From Verrucomicrobiota bacterium (GTDB lineage Bacteria; Verrucomicrobiota; Verrucomicrobiia; Limisphaerales; SXQI01): 64,000 bases of DNA. The DNA lies in assembly GCA_033762115.1 (NCBI GenBank), contig JANRLX010000067.1, positions 33,189 through 97,188 on the forward strand, written 5' to 3'. The translations under genes were made by a program, and so were the position numbers. The notes below the pieces were generated by a model. That model searched no databases, was not told the origin of the DNA, and was given only the letters and a program-made list of their open reading frames with translations. Shown piece by piece: positions 46,733 to 63,959 of this stretch. How positions within the stretch are numbered: the stretch's first letter is position 1; every line of letters begins with the position of its first letter.

Positions 46733-47119
46733 TTAGGGATCATTTTTGGTCTGTTTCTCATCGGTTACGTGTTCAATTGTCTCAATAATGCCGCGGTCTT
46801 TATCCGCCAGTGGCTTGTATCGGTGGGGGCACTTTTTGAGCCACGCGACAGAAAGTGTCTGAAATGCCGCGACCAATTCGGTCAACGACTTACCTTTCAC
46901 GGCGAATGTCTGAGACTTGAAGTGGAGGTGTAGAGTTTCTCGATCTCTCTCGCGCAGGAGTTTAGCGCTCTCGAAATATCCGTACGGCAGGATAAACTCT
47001 GTTTCGTCAGAAAGGAAAATTCGCAGACACAGCGGATTTTCGCTGGTCTGCCAGCATTTCAAATCTTCATTCCGTGTCGGTGGAACATCGTGGCGTTTGG
47101 GTCGAGCTTCCGTTTGCAT
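46733..47119 (-). CDS. Small hypothetical protein downstream of the relaxase
   Basis: 128-aa ORF overlapping the relaxase 3' end. Confidence 0.65.
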   Translation of the reverse strand: MQTEARPKRHDVPPTRNEDLKCWQTSENPLCLRIFLSDETEFILPYGYFESAKLLRERDRETLHLHFKSQTFAVKGKSLTELVAAFQTLSVAWLKKCPHRYKPLADKDRGIIETIEHVTDEKQTKNDP

Positions 47120-49878
47120 ATTACTCCTTCATCGGTTCGGATCGCTGAATTTCGTCGGGACTGAATCAGGTTTTCAACGTAACGCCGGATGACGCAGGGA
47201 GTGGTTCCTGAAGAATCTGATTTTGCCATTTCGATTGCCAGTTCCCGCTCGCCTGGACGGCAAACGTTTTCTCGCAGTTGATCCTTGTCCTGCGTGAAGA
47301 TTTTTACCCCCCGTCGTCCTCTGGAAATGGAAACCAGCCATTGCTGATTGTTCGTTGCCGCCTTCACCATTGAGTCGGAGAATAGGACGTGATCCATGGT
47401 CTTGCCCTGAGATCCGTAAGACGTGACTGCATAGCCCCGAACGAATTGGCGAAAGTTGGACGGCAAAGTGCGTCCGTCGCCCAAGCGAATTCGTCCATCT
47501 CCAAAGATAGCCTCAATCGTGACCAATTCGCCGTTGACCACTTCCTTTCCGTCCGCGCTGTGACCGTTGGCTTTGAGTTGGAGACAATCGCCCTTCGCCA
47601 ATTCCATTTCTTTCGGGCGACAGACTGCAATTTTGTCCACATGCTTGAAAGCGATTTTTCGAATGATATCCTCGGATTCGATAAGCAGATGGTTTGCCAT
47701 GACTTTGAGCAACTTCGCGTTATCACCCTTTTTCAAACCCGCAACATTTCGATTGAAAACTAATACAGCACCGGGTTCATAAAACCGCTCATCCCGTTTT
47801 TGAGCATCTGTTAAGTCGATGCGCTCCAAAGCTGAAACCTTGAAGTCCTCTTTGCCAATCAACCCAGCGCTTCGAAGGCCAATGCGAATCCGCTCGTTCA
47901 CCTCGTGAATTTCTCCCCAGGTTTGCGACACGACGACGGTCGATTGCTTTCGTTGAGCCAAATCGAGGTAAGCGGAGACGAGGCTCTCACGTTGTTCATC
48001 CCTCGATTTGCACTCGACGATTGCGCCAAGCCGTTCCAGGCGATCAAAGGAGCCAGCCAAATCCCCACCTTGAGCCTGCCTAACAGCAGACCGGTATTGC
48101 TTGATCCGCTTTCGCTCATGCTTCGTTTCACCGAGTTTTGGATTTTGGCGCCGTATTTTCACGAGGCGGGCTGGTGCCAATCCAGAATATCGTTCAATGG
48201 CGCGAAGCGCGTCTGAGGCTTCGACGGCTCCATGCTGGCGAGTGTCCCCGGAAAGAATCACACGGCCGCTGTTCGCCTTCACAAGACTCAAAAGGTCGTG
48301 CATCTGTTTGCCCCCGATTTGTCCGGCTTCGTCCACGATTATCACTGCACCCGGCTGAATCGAGCGTTTCGCGAGGAACTCGGAAACAGTCTGGGCCTGA
48401 TCAAAAGATTTTCGTAAATCGATTGCTTGCTGGCGCTGAGGTGCAATTACGGATATCGAATGGCCACTCGCCTTCAGTGTTTTCCCAACTTCACTCAGCG
48501 CGTGGCTCTTGCCCGTACCCGCGCCGCCCGAAAACAAGGTTATGAAATCCCGAGAATGAAGGATCTGTTTCACAGCGGCACGCTGATCAGCCATCAAACT
48601 TTGTGGCGCTTCATAGTCAGAAACGAACGGGGCGAACGTTCGGGCGCCTTGTCGCGCCAAGCATACAATCTCCCATTCGCGTCGCAAGGCTTCCAGTGTC
48701 GTCAGCGTATCCGTCCGAATTTCATCGCGGACATATTCCCGCTTTTGCGTGAAATTCTTCAAATCAGATGCGGAAAAAGAATGGCCACGGCCGTGTTCCA
48801 AGGCAGAGCTCCACAAGTCCCGCTCACGCAAGACGGAACGGCGATCAAATAAGTGCTCTTCCGCCCAACCTACCGCTTCAGGCACCCCGATCGGTGAAGA
48901 TTCATAGTGGTGAGATTTGCCCCTCGGCCAGATACCCGAAAGAGCTTTTTGTTCATCACGAGAGAGCTGGCCCTCCCAAAGTTTCTTGAGCACGGAAAGC
49001 TGAAGCCCCACGAGTTTTCGGGGTCGCTCCGCTTGGGCAATTTGCGCCCGGAGCTTTTTCACATTTCCGTTTGCAACCTCCGGATTATCGCGCACAAGCT
49101 CCTCGATCCGCTGATCAATCTGATGGTGGCGTTTTGCAAATCGGGAACAGATTTCGTTTGAAATACCACGAATCTCAAAATCGCCACGCGGCTTGTTTTC
49201 GATCTCGTACCCAAATTGGCGTAACTCGCGAGCCAATTCATGATAGTAAACATTTTCGGCAAATTTCTGAGCCCGTAACATTTCAAAATTGGAGAGTGCC
49301 TTCCATCGACCCTCCGATCCATCGTGCGTGGCGTTAAACACGATGCAGTGGGTGTGCAAATGCGGGTCGAGAGCGCGAGAGGTATCGTGACGGAAGAGGG
49401 CGCATACAATATTTCCTGTCAGCCGCTCGGAGGTTCGCAGCCCTGCATGAACTCGGGTGCCAGCAAAATGCTCAAGCTCCATCATCGCCATCTTCACCGC
49501 TCGATTGTGAGATTCAACGATCCGATTGTCGTTTCCAACGAGGGCCTGGACAGAGACCGATTTCGGTGGTGAGAAAGTGAAGTCGTACAGCACACGGCGA
49601 TTGGCGACCTCCACGGATTTAGCATCATCCCATCGCGTTGTTTTCATCCGCTGCGTTAGGAGATTTCCGGTCGAGGGATTCTGATTCCTGCATAGCTTCA
49701 AAAAGTCATCCATTTTGACTGACGATGACAATCCAAGTTGCTGAGCGCCTTTGCCCATCCATTCGCCCAGAACCTGATTTTCAATGCTGTAATAATCCCC
49801 CACCAGGAGATGTTCTTTAAAATACTTCTCCGCATTTCCGAGATTGCATTGCGCCTTGATCGTGAGCACTGGTTTCAC
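47059..49878 (-). CDS. MOBF (TrwC/TraI-like) relaxase-helicase
   Basis: KYF...GDYY, DFTFSPPKSVS, HDTSRALDPHLHTH (HUH), helicase motifs GGAGTGKS, IVDEAG, SGDTRQH, YAVTSYGSQGKT. Confidence 0.96.
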   Translation of the reverse strand: MKPVLTIKAQCNLGNAEKYFKEHLLVGDYYSIENQVLGEWMGKGAQQLGLSSSVKMDDFLKLCRNQNPSTGNLLTQRMKTTRWDDAKSVEVANRRVLYDFTFSPPKSVSVQALVGNDNRIVESHNRAVKMAMMELEHFAGTRVHAGLRTSERLTGNIVCALFRHDTSRALDPHLHTHCIVFNATHDGSEGRWKALSNFEMLRAQKFAENVYYHELARELRQFGYEIENKPRGDFEIRGISNEICSRFAKRHHQIDQRIEELVRDNPEVANGNVKKLRAQIAQAERPRKLVGLQLSVLKKLWEGQLSRDEQKALSGIWPRGKSHHYESSPIGVPEAVGWAEEHLFDRRSVLRERDLWSSALEHGRGHSFSASDLKNFTQKREYVRDEIRTDTLTTLEALRREWEIVCLARQGARTFAPFVSDYEAPQSLMADQRAAVKQILHSRDFITLFSGGAGTGKSHALSEVGKTLKASGHSISVIAPQRQQAIDLRKSFDQAQTVSEFLAKRSIQPGAVIIVDEAGQIGGKQMHDLLSLVKANSGRVILSGDTRQHGAVEASDALRAIERYSGLAPARLVKIRRQNPKLGETKHERKRIKQYRSAVRQAQGGDLAGSFDRLERLGAIVECKSRDEQRESLVSAYLDLAQRKQSTVVVSQTWGEIHEVNERIRIGLRSAGLIGKEDFKVSALERIDLTDAQKRDERFYEPGAVLVFNRNVAGLKKGDNAKLLKVMANHLLIESEDIIRKIAFKHVDKIAVCRPKEMELAKGDCLQLKANGHSADGKEVVNGELVTIEAIFGDGRIRLGDGRTLPSNFRQFVRGYAVTSYGSQGKTMDHVLFSDSMVKAATNNQQWLVSISRGRRGVKIFTQDKDQLRENVCRPGERELAIEMAKSDSSGTTPCVIRRYVENLIQSRRNSAIRTDEGVICKRKLDPNATMFHRHGMKI

Positions 49879-49900
49879 GATAGCACTCTCTCTCGAAAAT

Positions 49901-49928
49901 CTTGTACCGGCAGCGTTACAGCTTTACG
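49901..49928. repeat. 28-bp direct repeat, copy 1; candidate oriT core
   Basis: CTTGTACCGGCAGCGTTACAGCTTTACG, beginning 23 nt from the relaxase start codon; identical to 63665-63692. Confidence 0.85.
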
Positions 49929-49982
49929 TAATGAGGGGACATTGAGGGCATGAACAGAACCGCAGCAGTTTTAACGAAACTT

Positions 49983-50726
49983 TCAAAAATGGCGGCCCTT
50001 TTTTGAGCCCTTCTTTGGTTGCAGATCCCCAGTTAGCACCCACTCTTGGCCAGATGATTCTATAACACTGAACTTTGGACGAACGGGGTTGCCCTGATTG
50101 TCTCGGTCCCAGTTGATATTATCAGCTGACTCCAGCCACGATTGCCGGACCTGCGCAGGGTCAGCCTTGCCCTTCATATTCGTAAAAAAATTGGGGCTCT
50201 GCCCATTGCTTCCCAAGTTGATATTCACAATTTCCCAGCCAGTGATGCCGATCCATCCAACGTAAACCGCCTGTTTGCCGAACAATTCCCGTATGGTTTT
50301 TACACGATTCTCATCTGAATGAATGTTACACCCTCCCCAGAAAACTGTTTTGGCATTGGCAGACTGTTTGAACCCTTCGCTTTTTTTCAGAATATGCTCC
50401 TGCTCATCATAAATCAATCGGACCTGCGATGACTCAAAATAGATATGGATCGTTTTAGCGTCATTGTAGAGGTGATCAGAAAAATGGCCACCAAAGAAAA
50501 GCCAATGGTCACTACGGGAGAAAAATTCTTTGAGTCGGGCCAATGACGGCCGAGGCTCGCGGATCTCGATGCCTCGCGTCACCTTAAGATTTGTGCGCAT
50601 TCCATCAGCCCAAGTTTTGGCGTCATCGCGCGTGCCAAGGCTGAGCACAGCGTAAGTCTCCGAGGCGTGAACACTTGCGCTGACTGCGAAGGCCACAAGG
50701 CAAAACAGGAGCGTTTTCTTGGTCAT
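49983..50726 (-). CDS. Secreted protein, possible clan CD (caspase-like) His/Cys peptidase fold
   Basis: Signal peptide MTKKTLLFCLVAFAVSASVHA; WLFFGGH and VFWGGC motifs. Confidence 0.55.
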   Translation of the reverse strand: MTKKTLLFCLVAFAVSASVHASETYAVLSLGTRDDAKTWADGMRTNLKVTRGIEIREPRPSLARLKEFFSRSDHWLFFGGHFSDHLYNDAKTIHIYFESSQVRLIYDEQEHILKKSEGFKQSANAKTVFWGGCNIHSDENRVKTIRELFGKQAVYVGWIGITGWEIVNINLGSNGQSPNFFTNMKGKADPAQVRQSWLESADNINWDRDNQGNPVRPKFSVIESSGQEWVLTGDLQPKKGSKKGRHF

Positions 50727-50937
50727 AATCGATTGAAGACCAAATTGCATGAGAACGATTATGATATGGAGGATTAATTTTTCCAGAACAAAAAAAGATC
50801 GCCACTAAATGAATCTTCTCCTTAGGATCGCCACCATCCAGCACGATTTCCGAAGGGTGGTCTTTGTGTGGATTTACGGATTTGTATTGATTTGATCGCC
50901 GCGCCACCAAGCGATATAACGAAAATCCCCTTGCATT

Positions 50938-53900
50938 ATGCCCGACATGCATTTTCTACAGTTAGTTTTCGGCGTCGGTAACGCCGGCGTCCAGCACATC
51001 ACTTTCGATCCGAAAACTAAAGTTTTTGTCTCCAGTAAACAGCCGCCGGCTGATCAGTTTAGTTTCCTAAAGCTCAGCGCTGAGACAGAAACCGGCGAGG
51101 CCATCTCGTTGGAGATTCCTGGCTTGGAATTGTTATGGTGGTTTAACCTCAGCGACGCTGCAGAGCCACAGGTCGTTCCGCCCCGTTCAGTGTTTAACTC
51201 ATCGCGGCGCAACAGCGGGAAAGGGCCAGTCGAGATTCCGATCAGGCAACATAAGGACCCGCAAAAAAAATTGCAGCCGACGCTGCGGCTGCACCTCTGG
51301 ATTAAAGTTCCCAACTTCCTATTGCCGCTTCACATCAACGCCAGTCAGAGCGCGAACAATAAAGACGGGCATTTCGCTTGGTTGGCCCTGTCTGTTATGG
51401 CCAGCGAACGCGGCTTGCGCATTGGGCGGCTTGGCATGGCGGCAGGGAGCGACACGCGGGAACTTTTTTGGTTTAAAAAAATTCAGGGTTGGCGAGGTTC
51501 CCCGTGGGACGGACGACGACTTACCGAACGATTGACCTTCAGTGACCAGCCACCGGCAGCTGCATTGGGCTTCGTGCAACCTCGTTTCCGGCTAGAAGGT
51601 GCGAGCGAATCCATTCTCGGTTTGTCCGCTATTCGCTCGAAAAGACAGCGCACCAGCTTGGACGTGTGGTGGGAAAGCGATGATAGCAGGGTTTGGCGCC
51701 TCGTCTTTTCGCGCGCCCTTTACACTACGCCTTCGACCCGGCTGGTGGGCTCGGAACCGGGGTTGCGAATTGAACTGACTCAGTTGGCTCGGCCCTTGCA
51801 AGTCAGCCGCATCTCTCAAATGTGGACGTTGCGAGCGATCACCCAAGGCGAGCAGGCCATTCGAGGCTGGTGGAATCATCTGCTCTTCGGCGGAAAACCG
51901 GGCGGATTTCAGAGAAGCTTCGCCTTTGAATTGCTGGACCGTGAGCCACATGCCAGCTTCCCTTTCGATTACGACTTGATGCCCGAGCGGGACTCCGAGG
52001 GGGCATGGAGCTTCTCACTGCGGCCGCATTTGGTCCCATGGATCAAACGCCGAATGACGCTTCTTTTTCCGTTCGTTCGCGATCACCAGGGCGAGCCTCT
52101 CAAGCTCCAGGCATTTGTTGCCTGTTCGGTGGCAGGTGATGACGAAAAGATCACCCCCACTGTCAGGCTTGAGATCACCCCGGAGGCTGGCAATCAGGAT
52201 CACCAACTTGTGCGGTTGGGCTCCCTGGATTTGCAAGTTGCTAACTGGCTTTTTCCGCCCGGCACGTTCAACAAAGACCAGGGCGCGACCCAGGTGCACC
52301 TGCACCTAGGTTTTTTGGCGAAAGCCCCGGGCGCAGGAGTCATCGCCCGTTGGGAAATCAGGAGCTTTCAAATCGGCGGCCAATCTGTTGATCCAGAACC
52401 GACGAATCTGCCCCAGGAACGCGCGCTGCGACTGCCTCTTTATTCAGCGTACCCGGGAGGAGTCGAGAAAAACGATCGCGCCAGTGAGTTGGAGGCGACC
52501 GGAGCCGGCATCATTCTACGAATGCAGGAGCCTCCGCAGATTACCGGAGAGCCGGACATGTTTTTGCTTATCTACGAACGGCGTGATTCCAGCAGCGGGG
52601 GCGGATTACAAATGCGCATCGTCCGGCGTAATCCACCAAGGGCGACTGTTGCAAGCGGTCAGACGGAGCGACTGCTATACCTCACCTGGCGGCCATTTCT
52701 CGTGGCAATGGTGCGCACGAATCGGCTGGAGGAATTTACCCCGCGAGACAATGCAAACGAGCTGGCCTTTTGGTCCACGCGAGGAGAGTACGCGGGATGG
52801 CAAGGCAAAGCAGCGGCGGAAATGGCCGAACTGGTCTTCCCCCCGCAGGCCCTTGGCGAAGAAATGGAGCGCCTGAAGGCGACAGTCGGCGAGGATATCA
52901 ACCCGGGTGAACTCGTGGATTTTCGGCTTTCTCCGCCAACGATACTGCGGCTGGTCCTCAACGATCAATTACGGGATTACGCCCCGATGCCGTGGAACTT
53001 GCAGAGCCTGCTCGACAGGTTGACTACGCACCCTGCGACAGCCGGAGCCCGATTGCGTTCGGCGGACATCGAGTTGCTCTACGGAATCGGCTTGCACATC
53101 GCACCGCCTAAAACACTGGAACTGAGAGTGGCGGAAGTGTTCGCGCGCGCCGGCTGGCCACGGCGCATTCTGCCCGAGAGCCTCGGCGCGCGCGAGGGCT
53201 GGTTTTCAGAGACCGCTTACAATCACGTGCGAGCGGCGTGGACCCTTGAACTGGAAACATACCAAAAGCGCCTGGCCGTCTACGAATTGTTCGACACGGA
53301 CGCACAGGATTTTAATGAAGAAGGCCAACCTGCGGGCCTGGATCTTTACGGACGGGGGTTGAACGCTCCGCTGCAAGCTTACCTCCGGAAGAACGCCGAC
53401 TTAACCACCTCATTTGTGCCGTTCGATGAAATGAGAGGGTTGCGCGGAAGTTACGCATGGGCGTTTGAATCCAGGAACGTTTATGACGCGCTCTGGAGAT
53501 CTGAGAACGATCCCGACCCGGAAACACCGCATATAGAAGCGACCGAGGCCACGCTGGCTCGCGTGTTTTTTTCGGCGCTCGGCGGCTGGGGCTCCCAACA
53601 GGCGCGGTTCGACCAGGATAAAACCACTATCGCAGCGCATGTGGAAATGGGTCGCGTATCCGAATTGCGCGTCGAACGGATCGGCCGCATCGGCATGTTC
53701 CTGAACCGTGCGCGCCATGTCATTATTTATCGACGCTCCACGTTGCCGACCGACCAATTCGAAGCCGCGCAAGATTATCATCCCGGTCGGCCAATATTGC
53801 GCAAGGCTGAGGAATATGTTGAATTCCTGGAACCGTTCCGCCGCTTTCCCGACAAGCTCGGAACCAAACCGGCTGCGCCCGGCTGCCTTTGTGGATGTTC

Positions 53901-56900
53901 CTGCTACGAGAAGGTTCGCGTGGACAGTGCGTGGGGCGAGGATGTATTCGCCGCGGACGGATCCCCAATGGGGTGGAAAGTCCCGCTGCGCAAGGCCGGT
54001 GTGTCCGAGGAAGTTTATCCGCCGCTCCATTGCGTCTGTCTCCACTGCCAAGGCGACAAGAAGAGCGATGCCCCGGAAGTGGCCGGTTCGATCGAGAACG
54101 CAGAAAACGTTTATTTCTGGACCGACACTCGCAGTGAGGTCAATGGCGTCCGCATCAACGCCAATACAGACCAATGGCCGCTGGTTCCGGACATTGACCT
54201 GGCGCGGTTCGGGAACGAGGACGAACCGCAAGGTGATTCACTCAAAGCGCAGTGGGGCAGTCCTGCCATCATGCGAGGCGCGGGGGCATTTACCTGGAAA
54301 ATCAGGCCGCCGCTTCGCGAAGCCAACCTGGTCAGCCATTTGCCGCAAGGCGCGCAAATTGGATCGATACTCCGGACTATTACCGCAAGCCGCGGCGGCC
54401 TCCTCAACGCGGGCATGACTAACCTGGGCTATGGCACGCTAATCCGGGAACACATTGAAAATACTTTGACGCGACTGGAACAAATCAAAACCGAGCTGAC
54501 ACGCCTGCCGGACGGGGAACGAACAAGAGCCAAAGAGATTGTCGGAGGATTTTTTGACAGCCTTAAAGCCGGCCCGCGCCTGACCCGGGGAGGGGCTAAC
54601 TTTGGATGGCCTGCGTTCCAAAATGATATCGCCTCTGTCGCGGCCGCATTCATAAAGCAAAGGGTCGCAAAGAACATTGATTGGGCGAACCAACAAATGT
54701 CCGCGCGGATCAAGGATATTTGTGAAACCCGCTTCGGTATGGTTGCAGCGACCCGGAAATTTCATGAAATGATCGAGGCGGCGCGGCAAGGCCAGGACCA
54801 GCTCAATGCTTTGGTCGATTACTATATTGCGCAGGCTCGCCTGGCGATTGAGGAACTCCCAGCGCAATTGGATTACACCATTGAGCGCCTATTTCGCCTT
54901 GCCAGGAGTTTGACCGACCAGCGGATCGCCGACGGCAAAAGAGCTGTGACCGATTTCGTCGCCGCTGTCAATACATCCAACCAGGAAGCCCTCAAACAGG
55001 CGCGCGAGCGACTGAGCGCATTCCTCAAGCCGATCCTTGAAAGCCAAGACCTCTGCTGGCGCGGCCTGGATTTAAAGATCGAGCTGCAGCCCTCCCCGGA
55101 GCAATTCCGCAGGGCCAAACAAATCATTGAGGCGACCCTCAACCCGAGCGACGCGCGCCTGGCCGAATTAGAGCAAATCTTCACAACCTTTCAAACCGCC
55201 AAGGTGCGCGAACTGGAAGCAAAAGCGCGCGAGGCGGCAGCGAACGCAGCGGCCCTTTTCAATGACCAATTCAGCGCTTTGCGCCAGGAGATGCAGGACG
55301 CTGCCATTCCAATCCCCGGTCGCATTGCGGCTTTCCAAAGCCGCATTGGCTCCCTTGCCACGGCCATGTCCGCAGGGCTGCAGGAGGAAATCAAAAAACT
55401 TGGCGAGCGCTTGAAAGCTGCCGACCTGGCAAACCTCTTCATCAAGGCGAATGACAAACTCAACGAAGCCTTCGGTTTATTCGACAAAGACGCCAGCCGG
55501 GAGCTGGCAGCATTCCTGGCCAAAGTCGAGAACGCCACGATGGGCGAACTGGCGGGCCAGTTTGACCAATTCATCGCGAAGTGTCGTGAAAGAGGAAGCC
55601 TCGCATCCCAGGCTATCGAACAGCTTGTGCCGCGAACGACTAAAGAAATGGAAGAGTTAGCCCAACTCGCCGGCGATGCTGCCCGCCGCCTGGGCGAGGA
55701 CATCAACTCTGTGCACCAACAGTTTCAGCAGCTTCAAGAGCAAGTAAAAGGAGACTTCGGCGTTCGCCTGCAACGCGTGATGGGAAACGTTCCACGAGTC
55801 GAAGGCCTGGACTTTCAAAAGCTGGCCGGCGAACTGGAACAGGGCGTGGATGCTGTGGAAGCGAAGTTGCGAGGAGCCATCCGCACAGTCGGTTACAATT
55901 TTGCGGATGCGGCCAAGGTGCAAATGACCCGGGTGGAGGCGCTGGTGGACCGGCAGAGGGATGCGCTGGCCGGAGCGGTCAATCACGCGGCGCAGGAGAT
56001 CAAACTAAAAGCCTCCAGCCTGGTGATGCCAGTGAAGGATCTGGTTGATCGGGTCGAAGCAGAAGTCGACCGCGTTAAGGAGGTGGGCCTGCAGAAGCTC
56101 ATGCCCGATTTTGGTGGACTGCGGCTGGAAAAGCTCCTGGGGAATGTTCCGATCGACGAAGAACTCGCCGAACGCATTCGGCGGAGCGTCAAGATCAGCC
56201 ATGGGTTCGACCCAAAGAACATGACCGCTTTTGTCCAGGCGGAAGTTGATGACCCCACCACGGAAAAGGACGGAATTGCAATCGGTCGGGATTTAACGCT
56301 GTTCAGCTTTGGACCATTCGAGTGCCGATTAAAAGAGGCGCGGCTGTATGCGTTTCAGCGAACGGAGATTGGAGCAACCGGCGCGCCCCGGAGGGAGGAG
56401 ACAGGGCGAATCACCGCTGATTGGCAGATGCTCTTCCAGAGCGAGCCGCTCATCATGTTCAAGGAGGCCAGGCTCGAAAGCATTCAGGGCGAAGTTCGGA
56501 TGGACCTGGACCCGAAGAAGTTGGTCATGTCCAAGGTGCTTAAGGCCATTTCTGACATCTGCAATAAATTTACCGGCGAAGACGGTTCGGCATCCGGCGT
56601 TAAAATCGATTTCCCAAGATCCATAGAAGCATTTTTTCGGATGAACATCGAACTCCCTCCCCTGGGCGGCGGGACGTTCTCACTCAGCAACCTGTGGATG
56701 GGTGGACACTTCGACCTGATCGTCAACAGCGAGGGGTTCGAAATTCGTTGTGGTCTAAATATTGCCAGCCGAGAAAAGCCGTTCACCGTCGTCATTTTCC
56801 TACTGGGCGGCGCTGGATGGTTCAATTTTAGCACGCGCTACATGGTCCCGTTCCAGGACGGAAAAAAACCGGAGTTGGAGGTGGCGCTGGATGTGGGCAT

Positions 56901-57348
56901 CGGCGCGTCGGCAGGGCTAGCAATCAACCTAGGCTTCTTGCGCGGCTCAGTTTTGATCACCTTTGCGGTCAACCTGACGGTAAAGCTGTTGCGTTCGGAG
57001 AAGAAGGGCAACCGCAACTACCTCTCCTTCGCTTTCGTTCTTACTTTCAATGGTCATGTCAGCGTCCTCGGACTGATCTCCGTTGATCTCATGATCATGC
57101 TGGCCATCCGCTACGAATCGGGCGGCGGAATGGTTGGTGAAGGCAGGGTACGCCTGCGCATCAAGATTTGCTGGTGCTTTACGCTCAAGATCGACAAGGG
57201 ATTTACGTACCGCTTCGGCAAAGCCAAATCCCGGGCAAGCCTCAATCAGCCATACAACCGCGCGCTCCACGCTCGGCGAACCGGACAGCCGGTCAGTTTC
57301 CGCGCTCTGCATGCGGCGATGCGTCGCGCTGAGCGTTGCGTTTGCTAA
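50938..57348 (+). CDS. Giant hypothetical protein (2136 aa): beta-rich N-half, long helical middle, Gly-rich amphipathic beta C-terminus
   Basis: Uninterrupted 6.4-kb ORF; no recognisable catalytic motif. Confidence 0.85.
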   Translation: MPDMHFLQLVFGVGNAGVQHITFDPKTKVFVSSKQPPADQFSFLKLSAETETGEAISLEIPGLELLWWFNLSDAAEPQVVPPRSVFNSSRRNSGKGPVEIPIRQHKDPQKKLQPTLRLHLWIKVPNFLLPLHINASQSANNKDGHFAWLALSVMASERGLRIGRLGMAAGSDTRELFWFKKIQGWRGSPWDGRRLTERLTFSDQPPAAALGFVQPRFRLEGASESILGLSAIRSKRQRTSLDVWWESDDSRVWRLVFSRALYTTPSTRLVGSEPGLRIELTQLARPLQVSRISQMWTLRAITQGEQAIRGWWNHLLFGGKPGGFQRSFAFELLDREPHASFPFDYDLMPERDSEGAWSFSLRPHLVPWIKRRMTLLFPFVRDHQGEPLKLQAFVACSVAGDDEKITPTVRLEITPEAGNQDHQLVRLGSLDLQVANWLFPPGTFNKDQGATQVHLHLGFLAKAPGAGVIARWEIRSFQIGGQSVDPEPTNLPQERALRLPLYSAYPGGVEKNDRASELEATGAGIILRMQEPPQITGEPDMFLLIYERRDSSSGGGLQMRIVRRNPPRATVASGQTERLLYLTWRPFLVAMVRTNRLEEFTPRDNANELAFWSTRGEYAGWQGKAAAEMAELVFPPQALGEEMERLKATVGEDINPGELVDFRLSPPTILRLVLNDQLRDYAPMPWNLQSLLDRLTTHPATAGARLRSADIELLYGIGLHIAPPKTLELRVAEVFARAGWPRRILPESLGAREGWFSETAYNHVRAAWTLELETYQKRLAVYELFDTDAQDFNEEGQPAGLDLYGRGLNAPLQAYLRKNADLTTSFVPFDEMRGLRGSYAWAFESRNVYDALWRSENDPDPETPHIEATEATLARVFFSALGGWGSQQARFDQDKTTIAAHVEMGRVSELRVERIGRIGMFLNRARHVIIYRRSTLPTDQFEAAQDYHPGRPILRKAEEYVEFLEPFRRFPDKLGTKPAAPGCLCGCSCYEKVRVDSAWGEDVFAADGSPMGWKVPLRKAGVSEEVYPPLHCVCLHCQGDKKSDAPEVAGSIENAENVYFWTDTRSEVNGVRINANTDQWPLVPDIDLARFGNEDEPQGDSLKAQWGSPAIMRGAGAFTWKIRPPLREANLVSHLPQGAQIGSILRTITASRGGLLNAGMTNLGYGTLIREHIENTLTRLEQIKTELTRLPDGERTRAKEIVGGFFDSLKAGPRLTRGGANFGWPAFQNDIASVAAAFIKQRVAKNIDWANQQMSARIKDICETRFGMVAATRKFHEMIEAARQGQDQLNALVDYYIAQARLAIEELPAQLDYTIERLFRLARSLTDQRIADGKRAVTDFVAAVNTSNQEALKQARERLSAFLKPILESQDLCWRGLDLKIELQPSPEQFRRAKQIIEATLNPSDARLAELEQIFTTFQTAKVRELEAKAREAAANAAALFNDQFSALRQEMQDAAIPIPGRIAAFQSRIGSLATAMSAGLQEEIKKLGERLKAADLANLFIKANDKLNEAFGLFDKDASRELAAFLAKVENATMGELAGQFDQFIAKCRERGSLASQAIEQLVPRTTKEMEELAQLAGDAARRLGEDINSVHQQFQQLQEQVKGDFGVRLQRVMGNVPRVEGLDFQKLAGELEQGVDAVEAKLRGAIRTVGYNFADAAKVQMTRVEALVDRQRDALAGAVNHAAQEIKLKASSLVMPVKDLVDRVEAEVDRVKEVGLQKLMPDFGGLRLEKLLGNVPIDEELAERIRRSVKISHGFDPKNMTAFVQAEVDDPTTEKDGIAIGRDLTLFSFGPFECRLKEARLYAFQRTEIGATGAPRREETGRITADWQMLFQSEPLIMFKEARLESIQGEVRMDLDPKKLVMSKVLKAISDICNKFTGEDGSASGVKIDFPRSIEAFFRMNIELPPLGGGTFSLSNLWMGGHFDLIVNSEGFEIRCGLNIASREKPFTVVIFLLGGAGWFNFSTRYMVPFQDGKKPELEVALDVGIGASAGLAINLGFLRGSVLITFAVNLTVKLLRSEKKGNRNYLSFAFVLTFNGHVSVLGLISVDLMIMLAIRYESGGGMVGEGRVRLRIKICWCFTLKIDKGFTYRFGKAKSRASLNQPYNRALHARRTGQPVSFRALHAAMRRAERCVC

Positions 57349-57365
57349 CTAGCATTTGAAATTTT

Positions 57366-60300
57366 ATGCCCACGATTATCTACCACGCCATCGCACAGGT
57401 CCTCCCCGGCGGCGCCACACAGGGGGAGTGTTCATTCCGAATCTTCACTGTCAGCGGTGATGCCACCGGCAACGAGCCAGAGCTTCCCAATGTCCATGCC
57501 TGGCAGCTCTTCACCTCGGAGAGCCAATGGTGGAGCGAACCCGACCCGGCTGACCCGAACGCCACGGGGCCCACTCTCGTCGCGGACGCCGAGACGCGCC
57601 CAGGTCCGGCGATTAACACCCATCTCGGCCGGAAATTTAGTGAGATCGCCCAAGGCTTGCCATTTAAAGCAACGCCGCAACCTGGGATGGTTGAGGAAAT
57701 GGAGGTGACCGACGCTTCGACTGGCCCCATCGACACGGACAAGTCCTGGAGTTCAATTCTCGCGGGTATTTCGGACCATGGGTTTCCGATCGTTCAACTG
57801 CTCGGGCTTGGCTGCCGGGCCGGCGTTCGTCCACCCGCGGTTTTCAAAGCGTTCGTTCTTCCAAAGCTTACCCAATCGATTGGCTGGGAGTATATAAATA
57901 GTCCCGCGCCGCGAATCTTCCGGTTTCGGCCGGAGGTTGCCCCGGGCAATACAAGTTCATTCACAATTATTTTGGAAGTCGAATTGCAGGATCTTCCGAA
58001 CGAAACTCCCTTTCTTCCAATATCCGGCGTTGCCGCCACCGAAGAAGAAATGCTGTCGCGCGGGGGAGGAGACTGGCGCGGGGAGTTGCCGCACACCGCG
58101 GGACGCGCGTTTGATTTGCTGAGACTGCTCGCCTCTGCCAACCCTCAAGAGAGCTTCAAAGGCGACGCGGCGTACACAGCGTTGCTTGCTTTGGTTAAGC
58201 GCCTTGGATGGCTCCGCGTCAACCTGGGGCTTACCGGCGCCGCCCTGGCCGAGCCCGGCAACTCCCCGGAATCGCCGTTTCCTTTGATGGCTGCCCAAAT
58301 TTTATTCGGGCCATTTTGTGAAGATCAGGCGGAGCAAAACGCTGTGTCCAGACTGCCAAGCTTGCTTGCGGCGGCGAACGTCACGATCCCCGGGGAGGCT
58401 AAATGGTTGGAATGTTTTACGCGGGTCTTGAAACGCACGGTTAACTTGCAGTACGCCACGGTGAGCGATTTCCTGCAAGGCCAGGGAGCGTTCTCCACAA
58501 GGACCGCGGACAAACCTGGGAAAGGCGAACTGACTGAAGCGCTGAGCGCCATTCAAGCCGCTTTGTCGGACGATTCAGTTCTGGTCGAGATTTGGTTCGA
58601 ACTTTGGTACGAGACGAGAGTTCCGAACATCGAAAACTTTCAGCCTGTGCATCGCCTTCTGGAATACAAAACGTCGCGAGACGCGCCGCTTCCGGACGCA
58701 ACGCGGCAACATTTGCAGGACGCCCTGGCAGCCAGCGGACGCGGACTCTCGGCGCGCTTTGACGACGCGCTCGCCGGCAGTTACTGGCCGACGATTGTCC
58801 AGGCTTTGCTCAATGGCGAACGCGCCGCGGCCACAAATCCGGAAGCGCCGCGGGGGCTGCAGTTGCGCGCCCTGGCGCTGGCGTCCGGAGCCGCCAAATC
58901 TTTTCTCGACCTGCCGCTTTCTTTGCCCGCGGTGGGTGGGCTGCAGCCGTGGCTGGCGGATCCTCAAGCCGGCGAAGCGCAATTTGTGGCTGCTCTACGC
59001 GCGTGGATCGAAGCGGGGCATCCCGCCGCGCCCCCGCTTCCCGCGGAAGCGGAGCCGCCGCCGCCGATTCCGACCACCGAAGTTCCGCTACCTCTACAAA
59101 TTGCTTTGGCGGACATTGAAATGCCTGGCGCGGGCGGGGGCCGATACAATCTGCGCGGCGTTCTGATATTTTGCCGGCGTTATCCGATTGGACAACTTTC
59201 AAAATGGAAAGCGATCAACCTGGGTCGGGTGTTCACGCAGTTGGACGGCCAGCCGGTAACTCTGGCCGGCCTGGCTGCCATTCCAGTTGGTGGAACGGTC
59301 GCTCACGATATTCCCGGGCGAGTCGTCGCTTACGTCGGATCGCCGCTCGGGGTCGACCTGCTGGAGAATGAGGATCTGGATGTGGCGGTGCTGCCGGCAA
59401 GAGGCAGTCTCCCTGCGCCCCAACCGGTCGAAATCCATCGCGAGCAATTGGCGAAACGGGGATATTTCAGCGGCTGGATTGACGAGTGGGATTCTGAGCC
59501 GGGGCTCGGGTACGGCTGGACCTATAGCTTTGTGCAGTCTCCCATTTATCGGGATGGATCATTGCACTATGAACTTCTGCGCGCCGAACCGTTTACCGCT
59601 CAAGACGGCATCCCTCTCAAGTCTGTGGATGCAGTGACCGCGTTAATCGACGAGCATCGGGCGCAAAACGAAAGTATTATACAGTCGCGTAATTGCTCCA
59701 GGACGGTCGGGATTGGCGAGTTGCGCCTTTTTCAGAAATGGGTTCTGGCTGGCTCGGCGGAAGCGGAAGCCGCAGGTATAGTGGGGGTTAGCGGCAGATT
59801 CATACCGTTCTTCGAGATCCCCAAGAATGACCCCAATCCCAATCTGATTCCGTTGAGTTCGGATGTCGCCCGCCAAGGTTACGCCGATCAAATGTTCGAC
59901 AAACTCGATGTCCTTATCCTCCATGAGGGGATAGAACGATTCGAGTTCTTCGTCCGTCCTCCTGCCACGAGTTTTCTGGATTGGAAATCCTGGACCCGCC
60001 GCAAACTTCCCAACGATGACGAGTGGCATGACCACGAAGCGGAGATATCTCTGGCGAGAACGATTATCCGCGTCCTGGATGACCCGCAGGGATATTTGAT
60101 GGACGACGACGAAGTCGATTTGAGCCGGGTTGCTAGCGAGCCCGACCTGTTGGACGATCGGGCCGCGATTCGATTCCTAGTGCGCGTTGAACTTCTCTAC
60201 AGCGCCGAGGACGGCTTTATTCAGAAGGAAGTCTCCGCCATCCATGAATTTGACCAAACCATTAACGGTATCGCTGGGCTCGAAAGTTCGCGTCGCTTTT

Positions 60301-62408
60301 GCTCGCGCCCCATCGTCATCGAGCGTAATCACCGCGCTGCGCCGGTTGATTTGAACAAACTCAACCTCGGGCGTTTTGATGGAAGCACACTGGAAATCGG
60401 GCCCGGCGAAGTGTGGCGAATCTCAACGACGCCTTTGGTAAAACGCAGCGATATCGAATATTTTTCCAACTCGGTCCGGGGTCTGTTTGTCGATTTCGAC
60501 GATGAATACAGCTCCGTTCCGGGTTCCACTTTCTCATTCCTGGCCGAGGCTGCGCATCCATCCAAGGCGGAGGCGCTCAGATTGGGGTCGGCGGAAACGA
60601 CCGATCTCACCCGAAGGGCCCTCGAGATTTTGCCTTCCAAGGAGCAAATCTTTGACTCTTTACTATTGCTGTCTTCGGCAGAGGGCGGCTGGCGGGTTAA
60701 AATCGCCGTTGATCCAACATTGAATTCGAGGCCCGACCGGGGTTGGGCGTTCGTCGGTCGCGTCGAGGCGAATCTTCAATCATGGCGCTGGAACGGCATC
60801 CCTCCGTGGAGCCCGCATATCCTCCTGGACGGGCCGGCTCCCAACCCCCAAATGCCAGCCGCCAAACCCACGAAGCACCCGGGACTTCGTTTGTTCATGG
60901 ACAAGCCTGGCACAAACTTCAAAGCGCCTGCGACGCCAGAAGAGAAGGAATACGTTGCGGCAGAGAAAAGAATATTCGCCACGCGCGAACCTGAAAGTGG
61001 GAACGCTCACGCTAAACCACTCGGATGGCTTCCCGGGCGGGTCGCCGCTCCGAAAGTCAAAAACGCGGAAATTATACTGAATGAAGACAAAGGCAACGAC
61101 GTGAAATTTCCCAACTTCCACAGATGTCAATTGGTCGTTCGCTCGCGATATCATAGCTTGCCCGGCTATGCCGATTTCGAACGGTTGGGCGCCAATTCAG
61201 TGGATGCTGAGCCATGGCGCCGACTCGCAACATTGGCCGCGGGACCAGATCCGTTGCGCGCCCCCCTGGTAAAAATGGTTATTCCTTTGTTCAACTCCAT
61301 TGGCTCGAACCGGCCCGGCTTTTTGGTTCTCACGGGGGATACGTTGCCATCCCCTTTTCACACGCTGACAGCGACCATCGAAGTGGCGCGGGTCAAACGG
61401 CTCACTACCGGAGAAACAATTTGGGCTGCCGAGGCCGGGCCCGATCCGATTCTGGATACAGGCGCCGAACCCGCCGCCTCGAACAGCGATGGCTCTTGCG
61501 TTATCTCGCGGAGTAATCGCGCGGATGATCAACTGCCATCTTGGGCCACTGAACTTCTCGATGCAGACCCGCTCCTGGGACGCGCCGTGGGCCTGACATT
61601 CGAGCGCGAAGCGCTTGATCCAATGTACGCCAACTCGGTTTTCTTGTTTGATTCGCTGCCCCCTTCATTGGACAGCCGCCGGGATAGTGATTGGTTCCTT
61701 AAACTCACTTTCCGTTGGGAAACATCGGTTTCAGACGCCGCTCCCATTGCGCCCACTGGTGAATGGAATGGGAAATGGGCTCAAGTTGACAAAGACGCCG
61801 GCCCGCAATCGGGGCAGTGGCAGGTCCGAATCCTGGCGCCGTTCGACAAGCTGCCCTTTGACGATGCCGGAACGCCCGTCGCGATCAGTGACATCACCTT
61901 CGTCGAAGACGCGGCATCCAAACATGTGAAGTTCTTTGCCAAAGTGAGCGGGGATCAAGTTAAAGAGATAAGCGTTTATTCGCGTTCCAATCCGTGTCAT
62001 CTCGCGCTTCTGTTCATTAGCTTCACTTCGGCGCCTGATTTTTTAAGCGATCGCCCCAGCCACGTGCCGCGCTCTCTGTACTTGCTTGCAAAAGACGGGC
62101 CCAAACTTGTTCACCGGTTCAATTCGCCCGCTGTGGCGCCCAAGTCGCAACCGATGCAAGGCGTCTTTTTGCGCGTCCTGGTTACCTCGCCGACCCCACC
62201 ACCCCCGGGGAGCCCGCAGGCATCCGCCACCGATCGTTTGATGGCTGGAGTTATGAACCTCGATCAATTGATGGCGCGATTCTTCCCAGGCGCGGAAAAG
62301 AGTTTTAGCTCTCGTTTGGGCAGAGATCAGTCAGGCAATCCGGCGCCGTCGTCTGACGCGCAAGCTATGGTGATCCGCGCCTCGGCGCCGATTTCCGGCG
62401 CGGCTTAG
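57366..62408 (+). CDS. Giant hypothetical protein (1680 aa), partner of the upstream giant
   Basis: Uninterrupted 5-kb ORF 17 bp downstream of the 2136-aa ORF; Pro-rich linkers. Confidence 0.85.
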   Translation: MPTIIYHAIAQVLPGGATQGECSFRIFTVSGDATGNEPELPNVHAWQLFTSESQWWSEPDPADPNATGPTLVADAETRPGPAINTHLGRKFSEIAQGLPFKATPQPGMVEEMEVTDASTGPIDTDKSWSSILAGISDHGFPIVQLLGLGCRAGVRPPAVFKAFVLPKLTQSIGWEYINSPAPRIFRFRPEVAPGNTSSFTIILEVELQDLPNETPFLPISGVAATEEEMLSRGGGDWRGELPHTAGRAFDLLRLLASANPQESFKGDAAYTALLALVKRLGWLRVNLGLTGAALAEPGNSPESPFPLMAAQILFGPFCEDQAEQNAVSRLPSLLAAANVTIPGEAKWLECFTRVLKRTVNLQYATVSDFLQGQGAFSTRTADKPGKGELTEALSAIQAALSDDSVLVEIWFELWYETRVPNIENFQPVHRLLEYKTSRDAPLPDATRQHLQDALAASGRGLSARFDDALAGSYWPTIVQALLNGERAAATNPEAPRGLQLRALALASGAAKSFLDLPLSLPAVGGLQPWLADPQAGEAQFVAALRAWIEAGHPAAPPLPAEAEPPPPIPTTEVPLPLQIALADIEMPGAGGGRYNLRGVLIFCRRYPIGQLSKWKAINLGRVFTQLDGQPVTLAGLAAIPVGGTVAHDIPGRVVAYVGSPLGVDLLENEDLDVAVLPARGSLPAPQPVEIHREQLAKRGYFSGWIDEWDSEPGLGYGWTYSFVQSPIYRDGSLHYELLRAEPFTAQDGIPLKSVDAVTALIDEHRAQNESIIQSRNCSRTVGIGELRLFQKWVLAGSAEAEAAGIVGVSGRFIPFFEIPKNDPNPNLIPLSSDVARQGYADQMFDKLDVLILHEGIERFEFFVRPPATSFLDWKSWTRRKLPNDDEWHDHEAEISLARTIIRVLDDPQGYLMDDDEVDLSRVASEPDLLDDRAAIRFLVRVELLYSAEDGFIQKEVSAIHEFDQTINGIAGLESSRRFCSRPIVIERNHRAAPVDLNKLNLGRFDGSTLEIGPGEVWRISTTPLVKRSDIEYFSNSVRGLFVDFDDEYSSVPGSTFSFLAEAAHPSKAEALRLGSAETTDLTRRALEILPSKEQIFDSLLLLSSAEGGWRVKIAVDPTLNSRPDRGWAFVGRVEANLQSWRWNGIPPWSPHILLDGPAPNPQMPAAKPTKHPGLRLFMDKPGTNFKAPATPEEKEYVAAEKRIFATREPESGNAHAKPLGWLPGRVAAPKVKNAEIILNEDKGNDVKFPNFHRCQLVVRSRYHSLPGYADFERLGANSVDAEPWRRLATLAAGPDPLRAPLVKMVIPLFNSIGSNRPGFLVLTGDTLPSPFHTLTATIEVARVKRLTTGETIWAAEAGPDPILDTGAEPAASNSDGSCVISRSNRADDQLPSWATELLDADPLLGRAVGLTFEREALDPMYANSVFLFDSLPPSLDSRRDSDWFLKLTFRWETSVSDAAPIAPTGEWNGKWAQVDKDAGPQSGQWQVRILAPFDKLPFDDAGTPVAISDITFVEDAASKHVKFFAKVSGDQVKEISVYSRSNPCHLALLFISFTSAPDFLSDRPSHVPRSLYLLAKDGPKLVHRFNSPAVAPKSQPMQGVFLRVLVTSPTPPPPGSPQASATDRLMAGVMNLDQLMARFFPGAEKSFSSRLGRDQSGNPAPSSDAQAMVIRASAPISGAA

Positions 62409-62409
62409 A

Positions 62410-63534
62410 CTACGCCATCACGCGGAAAATCTCAGAAGCGCACGCGCTTATCTGCCCGGCGTCGCCCCGCAAAGTTCGGCCGGATTGAAACGCCGCGTTG
62501 GCCGCGAGGCAGGCCCGAGCAGCGGGCGCCACCGTGGCGAAACTGGCTTTAGGCTCGCGTCCATGCGCGATCGCCTCCGCCAGGTCCGCCCAAGCCAGGC
62601 GAGCTAACCTCCGTTCAAAGCAGCCGTTCGGCGAGTTGCCGACCACCGAGCGGCCTCCATCGTTGGGAGTTGCCGCCCAGGCGCCAAACCAATCCAGATA
62701 TACAGTTCCAGCGCTCCCCGTGAACACAACCTCGGCCCGCGAAACGCAGCCGGGCGGCAGTCTTTGCGCAAACAGTTCGACGTTCGTTTCGCCAAATTTG
62801 AATCGGGCCGTTTGGAGAGCAGGGCTCGAGCCGCTTCCAACATAAGACAAGCGATCACCGAATGAATTCACCTCGCTTAGCATATTGCCAGGCGGAAGCG
62901 ACCCGCTGACAAAATCAATCAATCCCTCACCGAAATGGGCTAGTAACCCATTTGTTTTCGCGCCGTGTTGTTGCCACGCTTGTTCCAACGGGGCCGCCAC
63001 CCTGCAGGTGACCGACTTAGTCTGGCCAATCCCGCCCGCTGCTAACAGCGTCGAAAGTTCAGCCAACTCCGGACGAAGGCGCCCTGGCAGAATCGTCTGC
63101 GTCGCCATCCGCATTTTGGCGGCGAGGTTTTGCAGTTGCTCCAATTCACCCATCCTCATGCAAATTGGAGCAGCCAGAAGAACAGCATGATCACTTTCGA
63201 GCGCCTGCACAGCGAGGTCACAGTGCGATTGATCGGGCGTTGCTATCGCCACAACGTCCGCGCGGGTCTTTGGCAAAGCCTCTTGGAAGGTTCCGAAACA
63301 TGGAAAGGCGGCGTCCCGCTCAGCTTCGAGGGCGTGTTCGTCAACAATTCCAGCGCACATTCCGCCCAAGCTCTGAATTTCTTCGCGCAAGATTCGGCCG
63401 TAGCGTCCGTTGCCTACAAGTAAGAATCTAAGAGGCGGATTCGGCAGTCGAGGAGACGCAAGAGCTGCGGTGGACGTCAACAAAGCTGAAATCTTTAGAA
63501 ACTCCCTCCGAGAGAAAACGGTACGAGTGGACAT
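62410..63534 (-). CDS. Tat-exported Gfo/Idh/MocA-family oxidoreductase-like protein
   Basis: SRREFLK twin-arginine signal, LLVGNGRYG, DVVAIATPDQSH. Confidence 0.85.
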   Translation of the reverse strand: MSTRTVFSRREFLKISALLTSTAALASPRLPNPPLRFLLVGNGRYGRILREEIQSLGGMCAGIVDEHALEAERDAAFPCFGTFQEALPKTRADVVAIATPDQSHCDLAVQALESDHAVLLAAPICMRMGELEQLQNLAAKMRMATQTILPGRLRPELAELSTLLAAGGIGQTKSVTCRVAAPLEQAWQQHGAKTNGLLAHFGEGLIDFVSGSLPPGNMLSEVNSFGDRLSYVGSGSSPALQTARFKFGETNVELFAQRLPPGCVSRAEVVFTGSAGTVYLDWFGAWAATPNDGGRSVVGNSPNGCFERRLARLAWADLAEAIAHGREPKASFATVAPAARACLAANAAFQSGRTLRGDAGQISACASEIFRVMA

Positions 63535-63579
63535 GGGTGAACGGTAACGAAATCCACAATTGTCGCAAGACTGGCGAGT

Positions 63580-63642
63580 TCAAGAAACAAAGTTTAGGAA
63601 CGGGCTCAGGAAAGTGTTGTGGATTGTGAACGATAGTTTCAT
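63580..63642 (-). pseudogene. Vestigial relaxase 5' stub (MKLSFTI..., stop after 20 codons)
   Basis: Start codon 23 nt from repeat copy 2, the same offset as the intact relaxase (MKPVLTI). Confidence 0.55.
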
Positions 63643-63664
63643 GATACTATTTTCCGTCCAAAAA

Positions 63665-63692
63665 CTTGTACCGGCAGCGTTACAGCTTTACG
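63665..63692. repeat. 28-bp direct repeat, copy 2; candidate oriT core
   Basis: Identical to 49901-49928; flanking GGGCRTGAACAGAAC is also shared. Confidence 0.85.
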
Positions 63693-63716
63693 CACGGGGG
63701 TGCCTAAATTTGGGGC

Positions 63717-63959
63717 GTGAACAGAACGGGAGAGAATGAGCGATTTAAAAGGGACGCTTTACCTCTAACTGTCGTTAGAAAGGTTGTCTCCGATGATAAT
63801 CCGAAACTCATTCGTTTTCATGGCGAAAGCGTTCTGAGAACCATCCGATCCATTATCCGAAAAATATCCGATTTTTATCCGACGAATCATCGAAATATTG
63901 TTATTTCCCGCACGATTCTTGGCGCGAGCGCGTCCGACTTTTATCTGAATCAATTATGA
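63717..63959 (+). CDS. Small hypothetical protein (MNRT...)
   Basis: 80-aa ORF divergent from repeat copy 2; its stop overlaps (ATGA) a next ORF starting at 63956. Confidence 0.4.
   Translation: MNRTGENERFKRDALPLTVVRKVVSDDNPKLIRFHGESVLRTIRSIIRKISDFYPTNHRNIVISRTILGASASDFYLNQL

Follow-up and report, generated by a model that had tools for sequence, protein, structure and literature searches.

A duplicated palindromic box frames a cargo insertion beside the MobF relaxase gene of a probable verrucomicrobial integrative mobilizable element

Contig JANRLX010000067.1 of a Verrucomicrobiota bacterium (SXQI01; assembly GCA_033762115.1) ends inside a probable integrative mobilizable element at a tRNA-Ser gene, and the 64,000 nt stretch analysed here (positions 33,189 to 97,188 of the contig; hereafter the window) holds most of this element. 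Within it, the small promoter region between the start of a MobF relaxase gene and an oppositely oriented open reading frame (ORF) is present twice, in direct orientation, around 13.7 kb of cargo. The 28 bp core that is identical in the two copies most likely acts as a promoter control box of the element, and it would most likely bind one dimeric regulator. Across the element family a single such hot spot for cargo was seen per element, and it splits the divergent promoter region. The account that we favour, with somewhat more belief than doubt, combines these features: a promoter region split by a cargo hot spot, a control box on either side of the cargo, and a second conserved sequence resembling an origin of transfer (oriT).

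RESULTS

Two copies of a divergent promoter region

The core (CTTGTACCGGCAGCGTTACAGCTTTACG) lies at 49901-49928 (copy 1) and at 63665-63692 (copy 2), identical, on the same strand and 13,764 bp apart; sequence reading and a pattern scan agree on this with an earlier note on the same DNA. With up to three mismatches allowed, these are the only two matches in the window, a number reached in 0 of 100 shuffles, and no further copy exists in the 3.92 Mb, 134-contig genome. The wider and weaker similarity described in the earlier note is also present. In particular, pairwise alignment matches 49858-49960 (intergenic copy 1) with 63622-63727 (intergenic copy 2) over about 105 bp with one 3 nt gap, and blastn aligns 106 nt at 75.5% identity (E 1e-13), the core being 100% identical and the flanks about 70%.

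The repeat is the entire small region between two divergent starts. Copy 1 runs from the relaxase start codons through a leftward promoter region, the box and a rightward promoter region to an ORF start reading MNRT; the similarity reaches about 7 codons into the 5′ end of the relaxase gene and 4 codons (M/V-N-R-T) into the opposite ORF. The reciprocal gene stubs at the cargo-side edges were found as had been claimed. At copy 1, an ATG at 49950 opens 18 codons (49950-50006, + strand), of which the first 4 alone are homologous to copy 2; at copy 2, an ATG at 63642 on the − strand opens 20 relaxase-like codons (63580-63642), of which the first 7 are homologous to the relaxase start. By sequence reading and alignment, the remainder of both stubs is read-on into unrelated DNA. 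The relaxase-type starts of both copies stand 23 nt from the core, again as described. To the right of copy 2, the reported 80-aa ORF is in place (63717-63959, + strand) with a GTG start rather than an ATG, and the ORF coupled to it does begin at 63957 (+ strand) and is cut at 64000 by the contig end. Relatives have at the same place an ORF of 134-243 aa without a Pfam family, followed by ParA and coupling-protein genes. The end of the window is the end of its contig (C67), and copy 2 sits 308 nt from this assembly break.

An intact MobF relaxase and its relatives

The gene to the left of copy 1 encodes, in agreement with the earlier note, an apparently intact MobF relaxase-helicase of 939 aa (47059-49878, − strand) with matches to Pfam TrwC (PF08751, 1.1e-77), Pfam AAA_30 (E 2.4e-36, residues 428-621) and NCBIfam MobF (NF041492, E 3.2e-67, 227 bits against a cut-off of 100). 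Alignment to TrwC 1OMH (E 1.4e-42) places Y19 and Y29 opposite TrwC Y18 and Y26, numbered as in the extract of PMC3264647 used here, and the His triad (H..HxH) is conserved, so that the catalytic residues are in place. The protein consequently has the TrwC-type HUH domain, the two tyrosines with the His triad, and the C-terminal superfamily 1 (SF1) helicase domain that together define MobF membership. Downstream of it, a 128-aa ORF (46733-47119, − strand) is conserved in relatives, as tblastn finds at many loci.

The relaxase family is present in 91 of 401 genomes searched in the order, this genome counted, and the closest genomic relatives are 66% (G106) and 63% (G215) identical. A metagenome scan gave 80 relaxase loci at 54-66% identity and nothing closer; ten of these lacked the relaxase N-terminus and were dropped, leaving 70 usable loci, which were compared together with a genome set of 44 (the window and 43 relatives).

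A cargo hot spot between two boxes

The order in G106 and G215 is relaxase, an intergenic region of about 85 nt, a short ORF beginning with MN, an ORF of 134-136 aa, and ParA; other relatives continue with a 121-aa ORF and a TrwB-type coupling protein. Relative to this contiguous layout, the 13.7 kb of the window is an insertion, as the earlier note had supposed. That note had also proposed a search for empty alleles; most relatives do have relaxase, box and MN ORF contiguous, and the exact core is itself absent from the collections, with no match to the 28-mer in the genome contigs or to a 22-mer in the metagenome contigs.

The second conserved element, described below, marks the far side of the promoter region and measures the interruption. 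Of the 26 genome loci that have it, 15 place it no more than 1.2 kb from the relaxase and 11 at a distance of 1.6-13.9 kb. In the 70 metagenome loci, it is found at +105 to +187 in 56, at about 0.9-1.6 kb in four and at 3.1-9.7 kb in another four, and it was not found in six. The uninterrupted layout is therefore the majority. A second box with 0-4 mismatches is present in eight of the 11 split genome loci, a box of another variant was recognized by eye in L062, and two have none; the distance from the second box to the second element is as in uninterrupted loci. In the four clearly split metagenome loci, local alignment of the two intergenic regions finds the box alone, over 22-31 nt.

At least 12 relatives carry different cargo at this same spot between two boxes, which bears out the earlier note's suggestion to look for varied cargo between core copies (the loci include kin: L069/L072, L065/L067 and L111/L139). 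For example, the cargo consists of a MEDS protein with a PAS kinase and a receiver in G342, of major facilitator superfamily (MFS) and resistance-nodulation-division (RND) efflux genes with a two-component system in G377, of Wadjet JetABCD in G200, of a subtilase with an AAA ATPase in G314, and of an S15 hydrolase with AraC in G383. Further, L111 and L139 have RND efflux and a kinase, with a LuxR-type regulator in one of them, L180 has RadC and others, and L183 has enolase, an Na/H exchanger and a CrcB fluoride channel (L183:4185-8038), a set that looks like fluoride resistance. The extent of the duplication varies. It is confined to the box in seven loci, covers the box and a relaxase stub of about 8 codons in G377, about 105 nt in the window, and about 225 nt at more than 95% identity and with sharp ends in G383.

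A palindromic box at several promoters

An inverted repeat precedes the relaxase start by 20-25 nt in all close relatives. Its arms covary between lineages (for example TTGTTATG/CATAACAA, TTGTTCAG/CTGAACAA, TGTGCCC/GGGCACA, TTGCGCA/TGCGCAA), and in the clade closest to the window it consists of 10 nt inverted arms around a 6 nt centre (56 or more loci). The core of the window occupies the exact position of this box in an imperfect form, CTTGTACC-GGCAGC-GTTACAGC, with a length of 22 nt (8+6+8) and half-sites that are symmetric at 5 of 8 positions. It folds weakly (−2.9 and −6.0 kcal/mol, z 0.23 and −1.85), and the boxes of two relatives are perfect hairpins (z −3.0 and −3.5).

A third box lies on contig C34 at about 306-330, with the same half-sites (TTGTACC / GTTACAG) and the centre GATGCC instead of GGCAGC. 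An HTH_17 excisionase-like gene begins 35 nt beyond it, and an attachment-site (att) repeat links C34 with the element. Rightward start codons follow the three boxes (49901, 63665 and C34:~306) at 28, 31 and 35 nt. The box is thus present in three copies at similar distances from start codons, its inverted half-sites conserved and its centre free. An additional box before the integrase gene was considered and dropped, as only a half-site-like TACAGC occurs upstream of that gene.

The relatives extend this pattern. G266 and G200 have an exact second box with a similar promoter-side flank 14.8 kb away, before a ClpB-like cargo gene; in G047 the relaxase-side box is inverted; and most of the differences between paired boxes concern the centre. 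The pattern as a whole suits an operator or activator site, in that the half-sites are kept, the centre is free to vary, either orientation is tolerated and the distance to several starts is constant. Candidates for the regulator are a 110-aa ORF before the third box and the ORF that follows the second element.

A second conserved element as oriT candidate

On the far side of copy 2, at 63751-63779, the motif GGGACGCTTTACC is followed by the hairpin TCTAAC-TGTC-GTTAGA (63764-63779). The same pattern, a motif GGG[A/C]ACGC..TAC and then a covarying hairpin, is conserved in 26 of the 44 genome relaxase loci and in 64 of the 70 metagenome loci, always towards the small ORF and the genes for ParA and the coupling protein. 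It has a single copy in the window, inside the 80-aa ORF, and a single true copy in the genome. Across 25 sequences, five of the six stem pairs change on both sides, and the covariation score of 0.359, compared with 0.132 in shuffles, was reached by 0 of 500 shuffles; the set had been required to form a perfect hairpin, which inflates the paired fraction and leaves the variety of stems unaffected. In many lineages, a further small inverted repeat (CCGCGA..TCGCGG) follows the hairpin. A terminator was considered for this element and dropped, the T-run after the hairpin not being conserved, and a search of 46000-64000 against Rfam returned no family above noise.

The 80-aa ORF that encloses the element is probably not a gene, since its counterpart in G106 has 31 codons and only the stretch of the DNA element is conserved between them (ALPLTVVR in translation). 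Moreover, the second element resembles a nick region more than the box does, because it joins an unpaired conserved motif to a variable hairpin, is single-copy, lies beside the accessory and coupling-protein genes, and is kept across relaxase lineages whose boxes are unrelated in sequence. From these sequence features, it is likely the origin of transfer, or nick region, of the element family.

The cargo of the window

The insert is compositionally foreign, with a GC content of 56-60% over 49961-63621 compared with 48-53% in the rest of the element and 52.3% in the genome, and it is packed to within 22 and 87 nt of the repeats. It contains four genes: a 255-aa protein with a hydrophobic N-terminus and no family (49983-50750, − strand), two giant proteins without a family (2136 aa, 50938-57348, + strand; 1680 aa, 57366-62408, + strand), and a Gfo/Idh/MocA-type oxidoreductase (62410-63534, − strand; Pfam GFO_IDH_MocA, 1.2e-10, above cut-off) whose TAT_signal match of 18.1 bits is below the cut-off of 22.7. 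The relaxase-like stub is followed, 45 nt further on, by the start of the oxidoreductase gene, which would be transcribed from the leftward face of copy 2.

No relatives of the four cargo proteins were found in the relatives' elements compared or elsewhere in this genome. The 2136-aa protein has 13 relatives among 5.8 billion proteins, none in a locus search of the genome contigs and two among 400 other genomes of the order, and the nearest named relative of a cargo protein belongs to a Verrucomicrobia metagenome-assembled genome. Two giant proteins (about 2100-2800 and 1600-1900 aa) and a Gfo/Idh/MocA-type enzyme form one module in three genomes: in this element, in G002 (L101, C11:7326-19751) beside TnsD/TniQ and an rve integrase, and in G203 (L103, C154:922-16319) on a short contig. 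Its recurrence in G002 and G203 points to a travelling accessory module.

The surrounding element

The left end of the element lies in a tRNA-Ser(cga) gene (23518-23607, − strand; ARAGORN), whose 5′ 40 nt (23568-23607) have a perfect direct repeat on another contig of this genome, at C34:3452-3491. This att repeat indicates that the element spans the tRNA gene to the window end, an assembly gap, and the first 3.5 kb of C34. A tyrosine recombinase of 498 aa (23690-25186, + strand; Pfam Phage_integrase, E 4.8e-18), 57% identical to the integrase adjoining the relaxase of the G342 element, lies beyond the 5′ end of the tRNA gene. There is thus an integrase beside the tRNA gene and a direct att repeat at each end, and the part of the tRNA gene that the element uses appears to be the 5′ one, whereas the 3′ part is usual.

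Between the integrase and the relaxase module, a first cargo region (25206-46618; Pfam scans) holds eight family-less ORFs, a peptide ATP-binding cassette (ABC) transporter set, a radical SAM protein and an M48 peptidase. The eight ORFs are successive on the − strand (25206-38420, 272-1095 aa) and belong to no family of Pfam, NCBIfam or PADLOC; the hits there were limited to a receiver domain, below threshold, and a faint one to TnsD. The transporter set (38704-44252) is of the peptide type and comprises two permeases, an SBP_bac_5 binding protein and an ATPase, with the radical SAM protein between the latter two.

On C34, the element part contains the 110-aa ORF, the HTH_17 excisionase-like gene and two more ORFs, after which housekeeping genes follow. 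Pfam scans of the element part of the window, in an element interrupted by the assembly gap, gave no type IV secretion system (T4SS) families; of such genes, relatives have ParA and a coupling protein alone. No contig of this genome shows overlap with, or similarity to, the C67 end or the C34 start, and a tblastn search of the genome (E 0.01) with the ParA and small-ORF proteins from the closest relatives gave no match; together these results imply that the middle of the element is missing from the assembly. Elsewhere in the genome, contig C21 has a second TrwC-type relaxase, 33% identical (L004, C21:95994-98543), and contig C90 encodes a coupling protein that shares 71% identity with the one of the G215 element; two small element genes accompany it, and no relaxase adjoins it (L094, C90:33490-36333). 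These are parts of further related elements.

DISCUSSION

A promoter region split by cargo

In the proposed arrangement, the element runs from the att site in tRNA-Ser through the integrase, cargo and MobF relaxase to a small divergent promoter region, which normally faces the conserved oriT-like element, the small ORF, ParA and the coupling protein. The 28 bp core is this element's form of a palindromic box between, or before, promoters of the element. The GC-richer module occupies a hot spot that splits the promoter region, a full box and its own promoter face remaining on each half, such that copy 1 would serve the relaxase, and copy 2 the oriT-side module rightwards and the cargo oxidoreductase leftwards. 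Binding by one dimeric regulator would also account for a core without a single change between flanks that differ by about 30%.

The origin of the duplication can be narrowed down from the same sequences. A flank difference of about 30% around cargo that is still foreign in composition suggests two related parents, not drift in place, and stubs of both genes at the cargo-side edges (in the window, G377 and G383) imply that the incoming copy had once stood in an uninterrupted intergenic region. The duplication may have arisen by Campbell-type recombination in or near the box, with related elements or cargo segments bearing a box as the partners; one crossover between the resident region and a circle that brought in a related copy would explain the geometry. 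The earlier note's integration of a circle is apt in this respect, and its choice of the relaxase as the agent found no support. Candidate agents would include the general recombination system, working with 20-35 identical bases, some recombinase for which the box is the site, or the relaxase.

Several observations weigh against this account. A pure operator does not by itself explain why the box should be duplicated upon insertion. Copies 1 and 2 share their 6 nt centre and the third box does not, which would also fit a recombination site with an identical overlap. In seven relatives, the homology between the copies ends within a few bases of the palindrome, and such sharp ends look more like a defined crossover site than like drift. 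A sigma-70 scan gave no match in copy 1 or in the intergenic stretch of copy 2. The assembled element is incomplete, and no ParA or coupling protein could be assigned to it. Finally, the oriT role of the second element is deduced from its conservation, its covariation (in a set selected for perfect hairpins) and its position.

Other explanations for the duplicated box

The shared centre and the sharp edges of homology would be expected if the box were a dedicated att-like site, possibly doubling as an operator, at which box-bearing cassettes are exchanged. The relaxase would not be the enzyme; candidates would be the tyrosine recombinase of the element, the Xer proteins of the host or another recombinase. 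The layout agrees with this: 10 nt inverted arms around a 6 nt centre in the closest clade are those of a tyrosine-recombinase core site, the 6 nt centre of the window box (8+6+8) falls within the 6-8 nt range of such sites, and at least nine different cargo sets lie between two boxes at one position. No recombinase has been linked to the box, however, and the att of the integrase is an unrelated 40 nt tRNA segment. Further, the centres differ between the boxes of five relatives, which would block exchange by a tyrosine recombinase unless they changed later; no identical cassette was seen in two different backbones, the module of the window recurring only in a Tn7-like context; and two of the 11 split loci lack the second box. 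We regard such a dedicated site as rather unlikely. A box that combines both functions, as recombination site and promoter element of an integron- or pdif-like cassette system tied to transfer genes and worked by the relaxase in a non-canonical way or by a tyrosine recombinase, with efflux, defence, ion-resistance and giant-protein segments swapped at the relaxase/oriT intergenic box, is unlikely too, though it deserves to be kept in mind.

Under the earlier note's proposal, an oriT would have its nick region in the core, and the MobF relaxase would have integrated a circle carrying only an oriT and cargo, leaving a cassette that might be excised or mobilized in the same way. Several features speak for it. 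The relaxase is an intact two-tyrosine relative of TrwC, the repeat lies directly upstream of its gene, and a duplication with reciprocal stubs is what one crossover between a circle and a resident site would produce. According to the extract of PMC3264647, TrwC performs recombination between oriT copies and integration into a 17 bp target that holds the proximal arm and the nick, and F TraI, in the same extract, does not, so that the activity is not assumable for every MobF enzyme. In the R388 nick site, as given in the extract of PMC4176350, a hairpin (5 nt arms, 4 nt loop) is followed by nine nearly invariant single-stranded bases, the nick and a purine; a MobF nick site therefore needs the proximal arm and about nine invariant bases, and the site pair of a TrwC-like enzyme should share the bases between hairpin and nick. 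The copies in the window do share 7-8 nt beyond the inverted repeat, which is compatible with a hairpin-plus-single-strand site. In G342 (L052), L111, L139, L180 and L183, however, the two copies share the palindrome alone and diverge directly beyond it on both strands; across relatives, the repeated core thus lacks the adjoining nick-site bases that would mark a join made by the relaxase. The window core is also a poor hairpin, the box is inverted relative to the relaxase in one relative, and it stands before an excisionase-like gene and, in relatives, before a cargo gene. The earlier note had itself named a generic dispersed promoter as the outcome that would speak against its idea, and the third box is of that kind. 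What it called oriT-like looks like a promoter box, and the more conserved motif with its hairpin, once per element and beside the accessory and coupling-protein genes (63751-63779, single-copy), is the better oriT candidate. On this comparison of sequences the relaxase mechanism is disfavoured, and we consider it very unlikely.

A different history would place two elements in tandem at the same tRNA gene and trim them by deletions, so that the DNA between the copies would be the integrase-to-relaxase cargo of the second element. The deletions would have taken the right module of the first element and the integrase and relaxase of the second, and a common regulator would have kept the core identical; we give little credence to the arrangement, and equally little to this course of deletions. 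The divergent flanks around cargo that keeps its own GC content again suggest two parental elements, L059, L062 and L063 have different box variants at their two positions, the genome holds parts of at least two further related elements (the C21 relaxase and the C90 coupling protein), and elements normally carry cargo between integrase and relaxase. Against it, the relaxase remnant by copy 2 never exceeds about 20 codons across the split loci examined, and the cargo contains no remnant of an integrase, att site, ParA or coupling protein, where random deletions should have left larger fragments somewhere; the tight packing of the window cargo against the repeats counts in the same direction. 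An assembly artefact, in which the true molecules would be an uninterrupted element and a separate 13.7 kb circle or other locus sharing the 28-mer, is barely credible. The assembly is a draft in many contigs and copy 2 lies close to a contig end, but exact identity covers just 28 nt (33/34), below common read lengths and final k-mers, the contig breaks away from the core, and the same order of box, cargo, box and element occurs in independent assemblies, including the 3.6 Mb contig of G342 and several long metagenome contigs.

Relation to known systems and significance

Variable accessory genes, including defence genes, occupy fixed intergenic positions of the backbone in SXT/R391 hot spots and in the accretion of streptococcal integrative and conjugative elements (ICEs) and cis-mobilizable elements (CIMEs). 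The site in the present family differs from SXT/R391-type hot spots in that insertion splits a divergent promoter region and leaves an operator-like box on each side. The favoured account, a split promoter region between control boxes, also resembles the operators of transfer genes, of which TrwA, which binds oriT and represses trwABC in R388 (PMC3264647, in extract), is an example. The common feature is a short box that precedes several transcription units of one element (on the relaxase, excision and partition sides) at a constant distance and differs between elements; here, the box is a putative operator, and it is duplicated with its promoters around inserted cargo. With R388 TrwC itself (extracts of PMC3264647 and PMC4176350), the element shares a MobF two-tyrosine relaxase-helicase, a short repeat next to its gene and the geometry of a single crossover. 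It differs in that the single-stranded stretch is not common to both copies, the box recurs at other promoters, and another sequence is the better oriT candidate. The pdif (XerC/D-site) modules of Acinetobacter plasmids are similar, as far as the extracts of PMC6449649, PMC5790767 and PMC13141974 describe them, in placing varied accessory modules between short inverted-arm sites with a 6 nt centre on a mobile backbone; unlike them, the present box has a different sequence, has no Xer or other recombinase linked to it, lies in promoters, and frames the one hot spot seen per element. A limited full-text search on verrucomicrobial mobilizable elements, judged by titles and abstracts, returned no paper on such elements and no description of the layout.

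The recurrent box-framed cargo site is the more interesting result. Relaxase capture, if true, would for the first time show in nature a reaction that until now has been known from laboratory work on R388, and the present evidence points away from it; a box that proved to be a recombination site would define a new cassette-exchange system. If the favoured account is correct, the element would offer a tidy example of how small verrucomicrobial mobilizable elements, which are common in the order, carry accessory genes, with three testable pieces defined in the box, the candidate oriT and the cargo site. In particular, as copies of the control box belonging to the element frame each insertion, the cargo may be turned on along with transfer.

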